A DNA stretch of 64,000 bases, taken from sequence record ON862890.1; one strand, written 5' to 3'. Origin of the DNA: Escherichia phage A221. The translations under genes and the position numbers were made by a program. Below the pieces are notes generated by a model, which was not told the DNA's origin, made no database searches, and saw only the letters and a list, made by a program, of their open reading frames with translations. Below, piece after piece: positions 5,474-51,190 of the stretch. How positions within the stretch are numbered: the first letter of the stretch is position 1; each line of letters begins with the position of its first letter.

Positions 5474-6982
5474 ATGGCAGACATTCAGATTGTTAAGGTT
5501 AACGAAGTCCGCATGCGTTGCATCGCAGATCTTTCTATCAGGGAAGAACTTAATGACTACTTCAAATTCGAAGACCCGAACTTCGTTCCCAACCCCTTCT
5601 CTAAATGGGACGGGGTTGTCCGCCTATTTACCAAGTCATCTGGTCTAATCGATATCGGTCTGCTGTTTGAGGTATTTAAGTTCTGTAAGAACAACGGATA
5701 CACCATTGAACTGGATCCGGCACTGAAGTACATTCAGGACATCCCAGATGAAGAAATCCGTGAATTCATCGACAGTCTGCATCCAAAGATCCGTACCGAA
5801 AATCACGAATATATCGATGCCGAGACTCGTGACTACCAGTATGACACCATCGCCAAGGCTATGCGTCAAACCAGATGCGTCTGTGAACTGGCTACGAGTG
5901 CCGGTAAGTCCTTTATTCTGTATGTCATGGCGCGGTACTACAGGCGGCGCAGAGAAGCTCTCGAAAGTCCTCTGAAGACGCTTATCGTGGTGCCGTCAAT
6001 CCACTTAGTCACTCAGCTGTACGACAACTTCGAAGAGTATGCGCATGGCAGTGATTGGAAGCCCGTTGTTAACACCCAGCTGATTTTTGAGGGCGCGACA
6101 AAGGAGATCAGCAAACCAATCGTCATCAGTACATGGCAAGGCATTCAAGATCAGCCGAAGGAATGGTTCCACCAGTTCGGTGATATCGTGGTGGATGAAG
6201 TGCACACCTCCAAGTCTGAGAAACTGTCTTACATCCTAAACAACTGCATCTATGCCGACCAGCGCCTGGGGGTTACAGGTACGCTGGCGAATACCAAAGT
6301 TGCCGGGCTTCAGGTGGTGGCTCACTTCGGGGCGTACCATAAGATCATCACGGCTCGCGATCTCATCAATCTCGGGTACGCCACTGACATCAAAGTGAAG
6401 ATGATTCAGCTGAAGCACACTCCGGCGGATGCTGTTGGTCTGGACGGGGATTATTCCAAGGAAATAGAATACCTCATTACACACCAGTCCCGCAACGAAC
6501 TGATCGCCAAGATGGCACTGAATCTGAAAGGAAACGTGGCCATCATGTTCGAGCGTATTGATGGTCACATGATGGTCGTGTATGATATGCTGAGCGCAGT
6601 CAAGCCCAACGTGTTTGTCATCAACGGGGAAGTGAAGATCGAAGACCGCCGCCGCATACAGAAAGCGATGGAGGATGGAGAGGACATCACCCTGTTGGCA
6701 TCATACGGGACAATGCAGCAGGGAGTGTCGATCAAGAAGCTACACCACCTTGTACTGGCACACCCGAGCAAGTCATATATCCGCGTCATACAGACATTGG
6801 GTCGTCTGATGCGTCAGCACTCCTCTAAGGACGTCGCGTGGATATGGGACTTAGTGGATGATGCATCGTACAACGCCAGCACGAACCACGCTCTTAGGCA
6901 CTCTCACGAGCGTTACAAGTTTTACCTGGCAGAGCGCCACCCTGTGGAATTCATGAAGGTGGCGCTGGGTAATCACGATTAA
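5474..6982 (+). CDS. uvsW: UvsW-type SF2 DNA helicase
   Basis: Internal ATG with GGGAG RBS; motifs WDGVVRLF, TSAGKS (Walker A), VVDEVH, KKLHHLVLAH, VWDLVDD match T4 UvsW. Confidence 0.85.
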   Translation: MADIQIVKVNEVRMRCIADLSIREELNDYFKFEDPNFVPNPFSKWDGVVRLFTKSSGLIDIGLLFEVFKFCKNNGYTIELDPALKYIQDIPDEEIREFIDSLHPKIRTENHEYIDAETRDYQYDTIAKAMRQTRCVCELATSAGKSFILYVMARYYRRRREALESPLKTLIVVPSIHLVTQLYDNFEEYAHGSDWKPVVNTQLIFEGATKEISKPIVISTWQGIQDQPKEWFHQFGDIVVDEVHTSKSEKLSYILNNCIYADQRLGVTGTLANTKVAGLQVVAHFGAYHKIITARDLINLGYATDIKVKMIQLKHTPADAVGLDGDYSKEIEYLITHQSRNELIAKMALNLKGNVAIMFERIDGHMMVVYDMLSAVKPNVFVINGEVKIEDRRRIQKAMEDGEDITLLASYGTMQQGVSIKKLHHLVLAHPSKSYIRVIQTLGRLMRQHSSKDVAWIWDLVDDASYNASTNHALRHSHERYKFYLAERHPVEFMKVALGNHD

Positions 6983-7350
6983 TCTTGATTCACATAGGCG
7001 GGGGTGGCCTCGCCTTCATCAGTTACTACACCGAACAATTTGTCCAGAGAAGCCAGACATTGTGAGTTCAGGTGTTCACTGATCGTATCCTTCAGCATTT
7101 GTTCGCTACCCAATTTGAATGGCAGAACCTTCGCTTCGATGCCGTTTTCAAACGTCACAACGCCAACATACAGACCAACTTTCAGGCCTGTCATCAAGCC
7201 AAGGGGGACAAATCGCGGCTCCGATGGTAAGTGCTTGTCTGACGCCAGCTGTGTCAGATAAACTGGGGTGCCTGTGATAAATTGACCTGTGGTGAGGTTG
7301 GCGTCTGGCTTACTACACCCGACTGCGTATAATCCTACGAACTGTTTCAT
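6979..7350 (-). CDS. hypothetical small protein (123 aa), possible lipoprotein
   Basis: Minus ORF more protein-like than overlapping plus ORF 7004-7261; N-terminal MKQFVGLYAVGC. Confidence 0.4.
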   Translation of the reverse strand: MKQFVGLYAVGCSKPDANLTTGQFITGTPVYLTQLASDKHLPSEPRFVPLGLMTGLKVGLYVGVVTFENGIEAKVLPFKLGSEQMLKDTISEHLNSQCLASLDKLFGVVTDEGEATPAYVNQD

Positions 7351-7541
7351 ATATTACTCTCGTGTGTTGGTTAACATGACATACATATTATTTCGCGTGC
7401 ATGTTTAGACCAAATAAATTATTTTTGCTGTTGAATAAAAACTGCTTTCTTGTTGAACAATGGCGTGGTATTATACGAGTTGTGAGCGTTAGCGAACAAC
7501 GAGTATTTGTTTTATGAGCGAAGCGAATAGGATTAATAAAG

Positions 7542-7598
7542 ATTATTATCTTTAATAAAGGTTATTATCTTTAATAAAGGTTATTATCTTTAATAAAG
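7542..7598. repeat. 3 tandem copies of a 19-bp unit GTTATTATCTTTAATAAAG with palindromic core CTTTAATAAAG
   Basis: Read directly; unit starts at 7543, 7562, 7581 in the 380-bp AT-rich region upstream of gp45. Confidence 0.8.
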
Positions 7599-7731
7599 TC
7601 CATAAATGCCGAAGGCATTTATTAATAACGCGTAGCGCAATTTGCCACTTGTTCTATAAGCAAAACACAGCGATACTAGATTGCGTCAAACATGACTTGA
7701 ACCCCCCACTATATTTTGAGGATACATACAA

Positions 7732-8400
7732 ATGCAAGAGATCACTCTCTCCGAACGTACACTTCAGTTGCTGGCCAACTTTGAGACCATCAACCCATCT
7801 ATCGTTCTGACACCGGGCAAGATGCTGCGCAGTATTAATGATTCTTCTACTGTGATCGCCGTGGCGCAGATCGAAGAAGACTTCCCGTTTGAGTTCCCGA
7901 TTCTGGACCTGACCAAACTTCTGGCCATCCAGCGCCTACCTTCCTTCAAAGGTGCCAAAGCCGAATTCCATCAGGACTACATCCTGTTGAAAGGCGAAAG
8001 TTCTCAGCTGCAATTCTGGCGTTCTGCTAAAGAACTCACTGTTGTTCCGGCTGACACCATTGAACTACCGTCTGTCGACTTTGAAGCGATCATCACTCCA
8101 GAGAAGATGAAAGAACTGACCCGCGCCTGTTCTACCCTCGGACACAAGACTGTGCGCCTGGTTGCTCAGGGTGGCAAAACTCGCCTGGTTGCAACCACCA
8201 CTACCCTGGACAACTCCAACAACTACACTGTTGAGCTGGGTGAAACCGCGCTGCCGGACTTCGTAATGCCGCTGGATGTTGCCAACCTGAAAATGATCGA
8301 AGGCAACTACACTCTGCGTGCATGTGCTGATCTACAGATGGTGAACTTCCAATCATCCGACGCGACGATCAATTACTTCGTCGGCGCACAGATTGAGTAA
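7732..8400 (+). CDS. 45: sliding clamp (gp45 family)
   Basis: 222 aa; N-terminal LLANFETINPSIVL and C-terminal ANLKMIEGNYTL resemble T4 gp45; sits before gp44/gp62. Confidence 0.85.
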   Translation: MQEITLSERTLQLLANFETINPSIVLTPGKMLRSINDSSTVIAVAQIEEDFPFEFPILDLTKLLAIQRLPSFKGAKAEFHQDYILLKGESSQLQFWRSAKELTVVPADTIELPSVDFEAIITPEKMKELTRACSTLGHKTVRLVAQGGKTRLVATTTTLDNSNNYTVELGETALPDFVMPLDVANLKMIEGNYTLRACADLQMVNFQSSDATINYFVGAQIE

Positions 8401-34700: not shown

Positions 34701-34721
34701 TTCAATATCCTTCCCTATACT
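34693..34721 (+). promoter_or_regulatory. sigma70-like early promoter (TTTACT-N17-TATACT)
   Basis: Exact 17-bp spacing; conserved leader follows. Confidence 0.5.
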
Positions 34722-34769
34722 TCATTCCATAAGCAGTACGACACCGACTTGAATAGCAGGAACTATATC

Positions 34770-40532: not shown

Positions 40533-40556
40533 AGGCCTCATTCGACGAGGCCTTTT
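40533..40556 (+). terminator. rho-independent terminator
   Basis: Stem AGGCCTC/GAGGCCT followed by TTTT. Confidence 0.55.
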
Positions 40557-40569
40557 AAAATACTTCAAA

Positions 40570-40589
40570 AATAATTTTTAAAAATTATT
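40570..40589. repeat. perfect 20-bp AT palindrome AATAATTTTTAAAAATTATT
   Basis: Self-complementary, between terminator and promoter. Confidence 0.8.
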
Positions 40590-40598
40590 GAAAAAGAC

Positions 40599-40627
40599 TT
40601 TACTCTTCAATAATGATGCACTATTAT
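40599..40627 (+). promoter_or_regulatory. sigma70-like early promoter (TTTACT-N17-TATTAT)
   Basis: Exact 17-bp spacing, upstream of a codon-optimised gene. Confidence 0.5.
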
Positions 40628-48260: not shown

Positions 48261-49871
48261 TTACTCTTTGGTGCCGAAATTACCACCATTGTCTTTTAAT
48301 TCTGCCTTGATGTCAATCTCACCCGGACCCGTAGGGGATGCAGGGGTTGCACCTGACAGAGAAGAAGCGCGACCAGCACCTTCGGCATATATGATGTTAC
48401 CATTGATCGTCTGAGCGACAGTCAGTTTGTCAGCGATTATCTCAGTCGTTAGAATCTTAGGAACCTTCAATGTCCCGCCGACCTCCAGAGTCTCGCAGAT
48501 AATGCGTAGAATATTCTGCGCTTGCATTTCCGCTAGGTCACTGAATTTCATCAGCGCTGTGCCCGCAACCACGTTGGAGTAATTGTTGGAATGCAAATGA
48601 TAGACCTCACCTGTCTTGCGCTGAACTTCAGTTCCTTTGACCGTCAGGTTGTGGTCCCCGCCGACATAATAACGCTTGTTGAACATCGTCAGGTCATAGT
48701 GGTCTTTGACGGACTTGTTGACCACATCACCATCCGGCAACATTTGCTTGTAAGACCCAGACTTATGCATCCAATGAAGACGTTCACCACCAGGGGTGTC
48801 ATCCACTTCCATAATATGCCCAGCTCGGGACACCATGACGTTATTGTACGGGTATTTAGAGCCACCCGCAGCCGGAACCATGGTTTCTCCAGTGTTGTCA
48901 ATATCCTGTACTCGTCCAGTAGGAGCCGGAGTCGGTTGTTCCTTTGGAGTACGATCTGGGATAGGTTCTGACCATTTACCATTCTGCTGCGCAGGCACGG
49001 CTGTGGCTGTGTTAGCAGGACCAGGCCAACGATATCCCAAGACCGAAGAACGTCTGAAACGACTAACCTTCACTGAATCGGATTGGTTGCCACCAATACA
49101 CCAGACATAGTTTGCATCGAACTTCTGCACAAACGCTACGTGTCCAAATGTAGGGTTGTTACCACGCCGGAAGACTACGATAGCGCCATATTGTGGTGCT
49201 GACAGTGGAGTGCCCCATGTAAGGTAAGATCGGGCAAGAGCGGAGCGTGTAGACGTGTATCCAGCCTGTATCATAACCCAACCCACGAACGCCGCACACC
49301 ACGACACTTCATCTTCAGAAGCACCAAGGGAGGTTGTCTTGTGATATTCTATAATGCGCGGGTTGTTGTTGAACTTTCCGGCATACTCCTTGATACCTAA
49401 TTCGCCACGAGCGATTGTCATCCACTTCTCTGGATCATACCCGCCAACAGGTGGTTGTGGATCTGGTTGTGGTTCGTCTTCTTGTTTCACAGGAACGTCA
49501 GTGACAGCGTTGTACGCCTGACGTTCTACAGATTGAACGACCTGCCCGAGAGCCAGTGGGTTTGTGTCGGCACCATCAGTAGGACTTGAACCAGTCCAAG
49601 TCCAGGTGATGCGTAAATTCTGGTATGCTTCGTCAAGGGCGAACCCCATAACCTCAGTGCCAGGAATGATACCCGTTGGAGACCAACCTAAACCAGCAGA
49701 GGAGGCATTTGAAGCAGGCATCAGTACCTTCGCCCATGGGAGTTTGTCTGTAGGCAGGAGGACGGGATCGTCGGTGTGTACGCCATATATGCGAACAGCA
49801 ACTCGCCCGTTTTGGTCTGGATCGTTGACATCTTCAACGGTGCCGTAAAACCATCTCATATTGTCTAACAT
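48261..49871 (-). CDS. baseplate central spike (gp5-like) with CHAP peptidoglycan hydrolase domain
   Basis: N-terminal RWFYGTVEDVNDP...GRVAVRIYGVH; CHAP Cys (SWCAAFVGW) and His (FGHVAFV); C-terminal repeat region. Confidence 0.7.
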   Translation of the reverse strand: MLDNMRWFYGTVEDVNDPDQNGRVAVRIYGVHTDDPVLLPTDKLPWAKVLMPASNASSAGLGWSPTGIIPGTEVMGFALDEAYQNLRITWTWTGSSPTDGADTNPLALGQVVQSVERQAYNAVTDVPVKQEDEPQPDPQPPVGGYDPEKWMTIARGELGIKEYAGKFNNNPRIIEYHKTTSLGASEDEVSWCAAFVGWVMIQAGYTSTRSALARSYLTWGTPLSAPQYGAIVVFRRGNNPTFGHVAFVQKFDANYVWCIGGNQSDSVKVSRFRRSSVLGYRWPGPANTATAVPAQQNGKWSEPIPDRTPKEQPTPAPTGRVQDIDNTGETMVPAAGGSKYPYNNVMVSRAGHIMEVDDTPGGERLHWMHKSGSYKQMLPDGDVVNKSVKDHYDLTMFNKRYYVGGDHNLTVKGTEVQRKTGEVYHLHSNNYSNVVAGTALMKFSDLAEMQAQNILRIICETLEVGGTLKVPKILTTEIIADKLTVAQTINGNIIYAEGAGRASSLSGATPASPTGPGEIDIKAELKDNGGNFGTKE

Positions 49872-49905
49872 ATTGAATTCCGGTTGTCAAACAAGGATTT
49901 GAAGG

Positions 49906-49913
49906 TATTTATG
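49906..49913 (-). promoter_or_regulatory. late-promoter-like element CATAAATA (one mismatch to TATAAATA)
   Basis: 34 nt upstream of gp5-like start, same spacing as the exact minus-strand sites. Confidence 0.3.
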
Positions 49914-50210
49914 CGCAGCTGATTTTGCCTTATATACTATAGGAAGCTCTGCTTCCGTTCATTTTATTTGTTTTATTCGATCCTATTCGCTTCGCTCATC
50001 AAACCGCCCTATGCGGGCAGCACCATTCCAATGCCATGGAGGCATAAGGGCGAGTCAATAACTGTACACCCCAGAACACTCCTTGAAAAATGGTATTTTA
50101 CTGACAATCTGATTCAAAACAGACAAACACCAACAAATGACTCGGGAACAAGCCCATTATAGCAATTTCAGGTAAAGAGAGTGCGTGTTAACCGATTTTA
50201 CAGTTAAGCC

Positions 50211-50240
50211 AATAAAAATCCCGCCGAAGCGGGATTACTG
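50211..50240 (-). terminator. rho-independent terminator (minus strand)
   Basis: Stem AATCCCGC/GCGGGATT, loop TTCG, then TTTTTATT on minus strand. Confidence 0.65.
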
Positions 50241-50383
50241 TTTCTTAGACAACCTGACCTTGAGGGCTTCGGTTAACAAGTCAAGATGCCATGGCATCGA
50301 CTCGTTGATTTCAAATATGCTATAGCCGTGTAACTTCAATTCATCACACATCACGAAGTAGGATAATAAATCAGTTTCAAACA

Positions 50384-51190
50384 TTAAATGAAAATTTCAT
50401 TAATACTATTGAATTCGATTTTGTGCTCCTTACCACATTTCGGACACTTGATCGAACTCTTGTAGTGGATGCGCGGTATTTTGTGGAAGAAGTTCTTCGT
50501 AATGCTGTCAATAACATCTGATTCGATGTTATCCTTCACCCATTCAACAAACGCTTCTTTCACACGGCGGCGCTCAGTAGCCTCTTCCGGAGTGATTCCG
50601 ATTTCTTCAGGATTCTCAACCTTCCACACCTGACCGTCATCATCGTACAGACAGTCGATAAAGGTGGCCAGCATCATCTCAACGCTTGCAGCATCAGACA
50701 GTGCCGTAGCGTCCGAGAAGGAAGGTTGGCGCATCTTGAGGTGATATCCACCTGGCAGGTCAAACGTCTCCCGGAAGCCGTCCTGAGCAATGCATTTGAC
50801 GTTGTTCAACGGGATAGGTAGAGTCAGTTCCTGCTCACAGGGAACCATCTGGTGCTTTTCTTGACCATCTCCCAGATCGATCATTTCTTCAATCTGATTA
50901 TTGCACTTATAACGAATCTTCATCAATTCACCGATGGAGATCATGCGCATGCGGATGAACACTTCCTCAACAACGCCGATTGGCAGTTTACTGAAAGGTG
51001 CGCCTGCATTTACACACTCGCTAAAGAGACTCTCCATCATGGCCGCGCGTTCTTCAATCGGCGTTTGCGGATCTGACACCTGAAGTAATAAAGTTTGTTG
51101 CCCCGCAGTAAAGGCGCGATATTTGATCACAGTAGGCCAAAAGTCGCTTTTATATGTCTTTTCTGTTCTGGGCAATGATGGTAAATTCAT
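50384..51190 (-). CDS. hypothetical protein (268 aa) with C-terminal zinc ribbon, possibly baseplate-associated
   Basis: Start at internal Met with GGAGAT RBS; C-terminal CPKCGKEH; context only. Confidence 0.45.
   Translation of the reverse strand: MNLPSLPRTEKTYKSDFWPTVIKYRAFTAGQQTLLLQVSDPQTPIEERAAMMESLFSECVNAGAPFSKLPIGVVEEVFIRMRMISIGELMKIRYKCNNQIEEMIDLGDGQEKHQMVPCEQELTLPIPLNNVKCIAQDGFRETFDLPGGYHLKMRQPSFSDATALSDAASVEMMLATFIDCLYDDDGQVWKVENPEEIGITPEEATERRRVKEAFVEWVKDNIESDVIDSITKNFFHKIPRIHYKSSIKCPKCGKEHKIEFNSINEIFI

Follow-up and report, generated by a model that had tools for sequence, protein, structure and literature searches.

A repeated 20-mer of Escherichia phage A221 as the predicted core of a tandem-G·A hairpin within a structured element conserved in enterobacterial Ackermannviridae

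In a 64,000-nt stretch of the genome of Escherichia phage A221 (ON862890.1; hereafter the window), the 20-mer ATGAGCGAAGCGAATAGGAT occurs at 7514-7533 on the plus strand (site 1, upstream of gp45) and at 49980-49999 on the minus strand (site 2, upstream of gp5). Comparison with related phages indicates that this 20-mer forms the core of a 25-nt hairpin with tandem G·A pairs, here termed hairpin D, which is the 3' module of a larger folded element. Across the enterobacterial Ackermannviridae, each genome has three paralogues of this element, one each ahead of gp45, gp5 and gp6, the last (site 3) lying outside the window. The hairpins and a pseudoknot of the element are maintained by compensatory changes, and we regard it, on balance, as probably a structured RNA.

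The presence of the inverted 20-mer, reported in an earlier note on this DNA, was borne out at both positions, with no miscount. No further copy was found in the window, even when up to three mismatches were allowed. As the earlier note had held, the match is beyond chance, shuffled sequences giving on average 0.01 matches to ATGAGCGAAGCGAATAGGAT (0 of 100 shuffles reached two) and ~0.004 exact inverted 20-mer pairs being expected in 64 kb from the window length. The similarity of the two copies extends to 25 nt with one mismatch (7509-7533 versus 49980-50004), this pair being the top inverted repeat of the window. In the comparison with relatives that had been proposed, both copies were kept at these two loci in ~45 phage genomes sequenced independently, thus ruling out the assembly artefact that the earlier note had envisaged.

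The two copies of hairpin D in the window are the following:

7509..7533 (core 7514-7528), plus strand: hairpin D of site 1, containing the 20-mer, supported by the exact repeat, the sense fold and comparative pairs.
49980..50004, minus strand: hairpin D of site 2, with the 20-mer at 49980-49999, supported by the repeat and the comparative pair test.

The predicted hairpin reads GUUUUAU / tandem G·A / GC-GAA-GC / tandem G·A / AUAGGAU, and thus rises from a lower stem through a sheared-type tandem G·A/A·G and two G:C pairs to a GAA loop; the sense 25-mer RNA folds at -3.7 kcal/mol and the antisense at 0. The site-1 core GAGCGAAGCGA shows no variation among Agtrevirus, Limestonevirus, Kuttervirus and Taipeivirus (alignment A1), and the flanking Y:R pair changes across genera from U:A (AUGAGC..GCGAAU) to C:G (ACGAGC..GCGAGU). 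The same switch was observed at site 2, where 100% of the cells at the base of the hairpin pair (alignment A4). In L172, a divergent relative whose gp5 is 67% identical, the inner G:C is replaced by A:U (AUGAAC-GAA-GUGAAU). The centre of the 20-mer is exactly GCGAAGC, as in the d(GCGAAGC) GNA-triloop mini-hairpin (C-GAA-G closed by G:C). On the contrary, among relatives the loop can be GAA, GUA, AUA, AAC or UUCA, and at site 3 of YX22, RPN242 and CBA120 it is swapped for a self-complementary 18-nt stem-loop insert, with the base of the helix kept. Since the loop varies or is replaced by a stem, the conserved feature is the helix with its tandem G·A rather than the GCGAAGC mini-hairpin. Nearly every base of the hairpin being constrained, the 20-nt identity of sites 1 and 2 finds its explanation.

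The other modules of the element, and the copies at site 3, are located as follows:

7473..7506, plus strand: hairpin A of site 1, AUAC-GA-GUUGU-GA-GC-GUUA-GC-GA-ACAAC-GA-GUAU, with two tandem G·A motifs.
50023..50045, minus strand: hairpin B and H-type pseudoknot of site 2, AUGCC-UCCAU-GGCAU at 50045-50031.
50004..50020, minus strand: hairpin C of site 2, CUGCCC-GCAUA-GGGCGG.
Outside the window: site-3 copies of LIMEstone1 (L136:1215-1400), YX22 (L138:515-720) and CBA120 (L139:515-715).

The loop of hairpin B pairs with a downstream AUGG (50026-50023), leading to the H-type pseudoknot. The sites differ in module content, with hairpins A and D at the gp45 site, the pseudoknotted B followed by C and D at the gp5 site, and A, B, C and D together at the gp6 site; this last composite copy, upstream of the gene for the gp6 baseplate wedge, was retrieved from 274 Ackermannviridae records. 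Paralogy of the three cassettes spans more than 100 nt and takes in the promoter-like boxes described below.

Pairing was counted over 19 distinct B-C-D modules, using as slid controls the same helices with partners moved by 1-3 columns. In the B/pseudoknot/C/D module all cells pair (342/342, 100%), against 27-52% in the slid controls, and six pairs (37 cells) are changed on both sides; the covariation score was 0.307, compared with 0.122 in shuffles, none of which (0/500) reached the observed value. Two compensatory pairs are found in helix 1 of hairpin B (AU/UA to CG/AU) and two in hairpin C (C:G to U:A), and helix 2 of the pseudoknot shows A:U changed to C:G in 6 sequences, all cells of helix 1 and helix 2 remaining paired. 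Hairpin A pairs in 121 of 121 cells, with four pairs changed on both sides (slid controls, 23-63%). Compensatory substitution in the helices is thus found beyond the controls, with 100% of cells paired and 10 double-change pairs against 23-63% pairing after sliding. Hairpins A, B and C were independently recovered by RNAalifold, and the sense RNA of hairpin A together with D at site 1 folds at -15.4 kcal/mol (z = -2.8). Moreover, a covariance model trained solely on site-3 elements from other phages and then run on the window gave two significant matches, site 2 (49.8 bits) and site 1 (38.5 bits), the next match having E=0.23.

Known families and more distant genomes did not return the element. 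Rfam 15 gave 0 matches in the whole window at the gathering threshold and, when the two sites and the composite copy of LIMEstone1 were scanned at E<=5, only unrelated sub-threshold matches outside the element; no tRNA or tmRNA was found. The hairpin-A pattern matched once, at chance level, in 185,579 bacterial and archaeal genomes, all 120 loci returned by a metagenome scan with the hairpin-B/pseudoknot pattern were chance matches, and no element was found upstream of the clamp gene of the distant Vibrio relative K452. A scan of IMG/VR with a degenerate 17-mer gave mostly chance matches (~90 expected); it did reveal the third copy of LIMEstone1 and some odd arrays, described at the end. In the literature searched we found no description of the element, nor transcriptomes, small RNAs or origins of Ackermannviridae. 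On these comparisons, it appears to be a previously undescribed structured non-coding family, conserved in enterobacterial Ackermannviridae.

The strand on which the structure resides is indicated by its non-canonical pairs. U·G wobbles occur in 17 of 19 sequences at one pair of hairpin C and in 5 of 11 at one pair of hairpin A. These wobbles and every G·A tandem form valid pairs on the downstream gene's own strand only, and the predicted structure exists on that strand alone. At both sites the motif reads ATGAGCG... toward the downstream gene (gp45 at site 1, gp5 at site 2), and the copies look inverted because the two units are transcribed in opposite directions. Nearest-neighbour parameters for DNA give no fold of hairpin D for either strand, a result only weakly informative because these parameters ignore the special stability of GNA loops. 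RNA is nonetheless favoured as the folded molecule because of the wobbles and G·A tandems valid on one strand, the lack of a fold of hairpin D with DNA parameters, and the pseudoknot; sense-strand single-stranded DNA, such as the displaced strand of an R-loop, may fold instead.

The window derives from an Ackermannviridae phage of the Aglimvirinae, the nearest relatives being Escherichia phages YX22, ZQ1, RPN242 and AV101, followed by Ag3 and SKML-39. Features surrounding the hairpins at the two sites are listed below:

7437..7474, plus strand: putative promoter-like box of site 1, with A-tract, CTTTCTT, 17 nt and TATTAT (7469-7474).
50061..50099, minus strand: putative promoter-like box of site 2, with AAAAUACC, TTTTTCA, 17 nt and TACAGT (50066-50061).
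7533..7598, plus strand: A+T-rich tract 3' of hairpin D at site 1, a 19-bp tandem repeat of TTAATAAAGGTTATTATCT in 3.5 units with 97% matches (TRF).
49957..49979, minus strand: A+T-rich spacer 3' of hairpin D at site 2, as read in the sequence.
7602..7622, plus strand: hairpin E of site 1, AUAAAUGCC-GAA-GGCAUUUAU, overlapping a late-promoter-like CATAAATG.
49942..49956, minus strand: hairpin E of site 2, GGAAGC-AGA-GCUUCC, between the element and the late promoter.
49906..49913, minus strand: late-promoter-like CATAAATA of gp5, downstream of the element; a 'putative late promoter' is annotated at the homologous position of LIMEstone1.
7649..7677, plus strand: candidate sigma70-like promoter of gp45, TTGTTC-17-GATACT, downstream of the element.
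7732..8400, plus strand: gp45 sliding-clamp gene, downstream of site 1.
48261..49871, minus strand: gp5 baseplate hub / tail lysozyme gene, downstream of site 2.

Site 1 lies in a divergent intergenic region between a small minus-strand gene (6979-7350) and the gp45 gene. Site 2 lies on the minus strand within a co-directional late-gene cluster, between a 49-aa gene with its strong terminator (50384-50211) and the gp5 gene. Both copies had been placed by the earlier note in the two largest non-coding regions of the window; the first (7351-7731) was taken as intergenic, but the second (49872-50383) holds the 49-aa gene (50235-50384) and its terminator, thus reducing the true non-coding stretch to ~49872-50234. 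The 49-aa open reading frame (ORF) is conserved (PHROG 9633, E=3e-39), and weakly matches the C-terminal part of a baseplate hub assembly catalyst (gp51-like; E=4e-4).

All three sites have a common layout 5' of the hairpins, with identical spacing: an A-tract, a T-rich box (CTTTCTT, CTTTTCT or TTTTTCA), 17 nt and a TAnnnT hexamer. This pattern was found nowhere else in the window, the boxes of site 1 are conserved in alignment A1, and L172 reads TTTCTC-17-TATAAT at the equivalent place, with a consensus TATAAT hexamer. The box (A-tract, TTTYYN, 17 nt, TAnnnT) would represent a dedicated sigma70-type promoter. After it, each cassette continues in the same order with the hairpins, an A+T-rich tract, a further small hairpin and the promoter-like sequences of the gene itself. 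The 19-bp repeat of the site-1 tract is expanded in this lineage (3.5 units versus ~1.5 in Ag3, LIMEstone1 and other relatives), and the tract (7533-7598) is the least stable 50-bp duplex of the window, ~5 standard deviations below the mean; the spacer of site 2 is outside the 12 least stable duplexes. Hairpin E of site 1 was scored as terminator-like on the minus strand and is kept in Kuttervirus with a GUCA loop; that of site 2 is kept in Kuttervirus and missing from the Taipeivirus row, which is the site-3 element of that phage. Both hexamer blocks of the gp45 promoter candidate are invariant, with a variable spacer (alignment A1), and at the gp6 site a CTAAATA before the gene is annotated in LIMEstone1.

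Some further signals were observed close to these cassettes. Upstream of site 2, a perfect extended -10 (TGCTATAAT) is present at 50156-50164 on the minus strand, ~50 nt past the terminator of the gp26 operon and with ~57 nt separating it from the site-2 box, which follows; its ATTGYTAT core is conserved in Kuttervirus, and a related box, TTGYTRTTGAAT, is found upstream of sites 1 and 3. Between the element and the promoter-like site of gp45, at 7629-7638 on the plus strand, CGC-GTA-GCG(C) would form a GNA-triloop mini-hairpin ('CGCG box'), and comparable boxes rich in CGCG come after the element in L172 and at site 3. Elsewhere in the window, the duplex at 40552-40615 (7-13% GC), which ranks second among the least stable, forms a 25-nt imperfect inverted repeat with 7416-7440 and includes a degenerate copy of the site-1 19-bp repeat unit.

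According to the structured-RNA reading, host RNA polymerase would transcribe the element early in infection, starting from the dedicated promoter-like box next to the hairpins on their 5' side, and the element would function as RNA, either a short early structured transcript or a leader. The two tandem-G·A hairpins would be recognised by a protein of the phage or the host, or else by RNA polymerase itself; as recognition sites, the hairpins would most likely influence the expression of gp45, gp5 and gp6. The leader would be nut/put-like, acting in cis to modify elongation or termination into the downstream operon, or else the product would be a short stable regulatory RNA; this last level of detail is a guess, with the chances clearly against it.

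The model for such a leader comes from lambda and HK022. In a lambda-type nut site, a boxA resembling CGCUCUUA precedes a boxB hairpin whose pentaloop is GNRA-like. The lambda nut (boxA/boxB) and HK022 put elements are, like the element described here, short hairpin RNAs present in few copies per genome, in sense orientation and just past a promoter, and their copies in divergent units also look like inverted repeats on DNA; lambda boxB loops likewise depend on sheared G·A. Furthermore, a boxA-like word is found 5' of hairpin B (50045-50052, minus strand), reading CGCCCTTA in the window and drifting in other genera, and in most Aglimvirinae (Ag3, LIMEstone1, EspM4VN, CAU_YEP3) the sequence at site 2 is CGCTCTTA, the same as the lambda boxA consensus. 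On the other hand, our element has tandem G·A inside the stem and a pseudoknot, its hairpins are not boxB-like, and the terminators to be overridden are weak or unproven here. We know of no N, Q or Nun homologue in Ackermannviridae.

Several observations weigh against the structured-RNA reading as a whole. The independent compensatory events are few, the sequences being related and several of the changes dividing paralogues or whole genera. Sheared G·A and GNA-triloop mini-hairpins are very stable in DNA too; the d(GCGAAGC) mini-hairpin, in particular, is said by Hirao and co-workers to be very stable as DNA. At site 1 the proposed -10 hexamer and the lower stem of hairpin A share sequence, so that either the stem or the promoter must be wrong there. 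Promoter-like sequences of the genes themselves lie downstream of the element at all three sites, hence the element may not be included in the main mRNAs. The boxA-like word CGCYCTTA is not statistically unusual (3 in the window versus 2.1 expected), and no informative family for an RNA-binding partner was retrieved among the flanking small ORFs by a Pfam and PHROGs scan. Finally, the RNA nature, the promoter and the 3' end of the element are all predictions from sequence.

The most serious alternative is that the cassettes are R-loop-type replication origins, the three copies corresponding to the three early origins of the phage. In this case the transcript from the early promoter would stay hybridised in the adjacent A+T-rich unwinding element, and the hairpins, in the RNA or in the displaced non-template (sense) strand, would stabilise or mark the R-loop for replisome loading. 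In T4, oriF and oriG each consist of a promoter whose -10 is of the sigma70 type and, downstream of it, a DNA unwinding element rich in A+T, oriE has an early promoter and iterons, and active origins lie at points of transcriptional divergence (PMC3016281). The cassettes resemble these origins in their order of promoter-like box, hairpins and, immediately after these, an A+T-rich tract, in their low number (no more than three per genome), and in the position of sites 1 and 3, which are divergent intergenic regions adjoining replication genes (uvsW, gp45). Moreover, the site-1 tract is the least stable duplex of the 64 kb with an iteron-like 19-bp tandem repeat, and a structure on the sense strand suits a displaced strand equally well. 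However, of the elements expected from T4, an extreme A+T tract is found at site 1 only, where the repeat expansion is lineage-specific, that of site 2 being unremarkable and unconvincing; the upstream promoter is represented by a putative box, conserved at the three sites and overlapping hairpin A at site 1; and site 2 is embedded in a co-directional cluster of late genes. T4 origins have no common sequence motif and no conserved, covarying hairpins (PMC3016281), and oriF and oriG need MotA, which is lacking in this family. A pseudoknot kept by covariation is more typical of an RNA function, and hairpin D is not folded by DNA parameters. We therefore hold an origin function to be rather unlikely, if a serious candidate.

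The earlier note had read the repeat mainly as a shared protein-binding site or promoter element, taken here as a site in double-stranded DNA. That the repeat is the non-random mark of a shared functional element stands, and protein binding may hold at the RNA level, but a site for a protein on double-stranded DNA is poorly supported, and we consider transcription-factor binding or a promoter improbable. The motif is certainly highly conserved and placed in regulatory intergenic regions, and two direct AGCGA half-sites can be recognised in its core. Nevertheless, a double-stranded site with fixed spacing is incompatible with compensatory pairs, with a loop of variable length and with the 18-nt stem-loop inserted between the 'half-sites', and it leaves unexplained the G:U wobbles tolerated on one strand only. 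As for a promoter formed by the 20-mer itself, a sigma70 consensus scan (-35/-10 hexamers, 16-18 nt spacing) found no promoter-like site overlapping the motif on either strand. A more specific version is found in LIMEstone1, where -35 and -10 boxes of a 'putative middle promoter' are annotated over the motif on the opposite strand, the GCTT of the complement of the 20-mer serving as a MotA-box-like -35. This, the one published promoter call over the motif, was made solely in silico, by similarity to T4 (PMC3296691). A T4-type middle promoter combines a MotA box at -30 with a sigma70 -10 and needs MotA and AsiA from the phage, and ViI-like phages have no homologues of either (PMC3184105). Site 2, in addition, has no properly placed -10 on that strand and no gene to drive. 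A T4-type middle promoter was thus rejected, and the published annotation over the 20-mer is probably wrong.

A recombination hotspot had also been suggested, and the repeat could in principle mediate or result from exchange, as a substrate for recombination or gene conversion or as a mobile cassette. The T4-type phages reportedly carry, according to Arbiol et al. 2010, numerous promoter-early stem-loop (PeSL) cassettes in hyperplastic regions, which mediate gene shuffling, and the likeness is in the repeated units of promoter and stem-loop in intergenic regions. The paralogy of the three cassettes, promoter-like boxes included, fits such an origin, as does the fact that in Aglimvirinae sites 1 and 2 have the same derived U:A pair and flanks, with C:G retained at site 3, a pattern suggesting concerted evolution. 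Gene conversion could account for this U:A identity, which would then be a consequence of the repeat and not its function. Unlike PeSLs, the element has three copies at fixed core-genome positions and a complex conserved fold; the loci are syntenic and stable across the subfamilies, in core-gene rather than hyperplastic regions. A crossover between the two inverted copies would invert 42 kb, a rearrangement not seen among the relatives, and purifying selection on the structure accounts for the identity without any exchange. The hotspot thus finds no support in loci so stable across the family, and exchange as the role of the repeat appears very improbable.

That the 20-mer, which in the window begins with ATG, encodes a tiny ORF (MSEANRI...) or a minimal hammerhead ribozyme can practically be dismissed, since Kuttervirus and Taipeivirus read UUACGAG at both sites, with loss of both G5/A6 and the ATG (ACG in these two genera) and the hairpin kept. 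The resemblance to hammerhead domain II and to kink-turns comes from the tandem G·A/A·G stacked on a short G:C helix and from the UGAUGA...GA of the Aglimvirinae copies, site 2 of CAU_YEP3 reading CUGAUGA-GC-GAA-GC-GAA. The core C3-U4-G5-A6-N7-G8-A9 ... G12-A13-A14 is not conserved, CUGAUGA being found in that one phage only; of the three-helix architecture only a stem-II-like helix is present, with no conserved stem I or III in the alignments and no cleavage site; and no Rfam hammerhead match was obtained at E<=5. A kink-turn or box C/D motif was likewise rejected, the G·A tandem being flanked on both sides by Watson-Crick pairs, with no 3-nt bulge.

The T4 gene 32 translational operator, in which an unstructured A/U-rich tract with UUAAA-like repeats comes after a 5' pseudoknot, offers a further comparison, as in our element too a pseudoknot is followed by an A/U-rich tract. 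The element differs in not being at gene 32, in lying 100-200 nt from the start codons with promoter-like sequences in between, and in its extra hairpins.

Phages of the Ackermannviridae (ViI, CBA120, LIMEstone, Taipeivirus and others) are widely used for therapy and biocontrol. In the CBA120 genome paper, early promoters could not be identified, and MotA and AsiA were absent. The element provides a testable handle on early and middle regulation and on replication origins of the family, and would add an undescribed RNA motif, double tandem-G·A hairpins with a pseudoknot, to the catalogue of phage non-coding RNAs. More speculatively, and with considerable doubt, the cassettes might be the early control signals of ViI-like phages, as R-loop origins whose tandem-G·A hairpins mark the displaced strand or the primer RNA, or as put/nut-like processive antitermination replacing the MotA/AsiA middle switch; the recurrence of the mini-hairpin in arrays of unrelated viral contigs suggests a recognition module in wide use.

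Hairpins with a similar design were also noticed in other viral sequences. Contig L116 (2500-2790), as well as L101, L117 and L127, all IMG/VR contigs unrelated to Ackermannviridae, carry intergenic arrays of 'TTTCCTTTAAATA' repeats and mini-hairpins having the architecture of the 20-mer core with other loops, i.e. CGAGC-GAA-GCGAG, GGAGC-GCCA-GCGAC and GGAGC-GATA-GCGAA, the last in four tandem copies; a protein of 1192 aa near these arrays matches only DUF5757. By this resemblance, the tandem-G·A hairpin may be a recurring viral module. In another unrelated IMG/VR contig of 58 kb (L054:4657-4909), the degenerate 17-mer AYGAGCGAAGCGARTWG is repeated five times with a period of ~63 nt.

Two other repeat families were observed in the window. 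The sequence (A/G)GRACTATATCATG is found at six gene starts on the plus strand (19103, 19402, 23607, 34758, 35056 and 46981), and could represent either a promoter-proximal motif or a common context for ribosome binding or translation initiation. Positions 1127-1180 and 34713-34766 (plus strand) form a direct repeat of 54 nt with 87% identity, which ends in the start-site motif GGAACTAT and may be another duplicated regulatory cassette.

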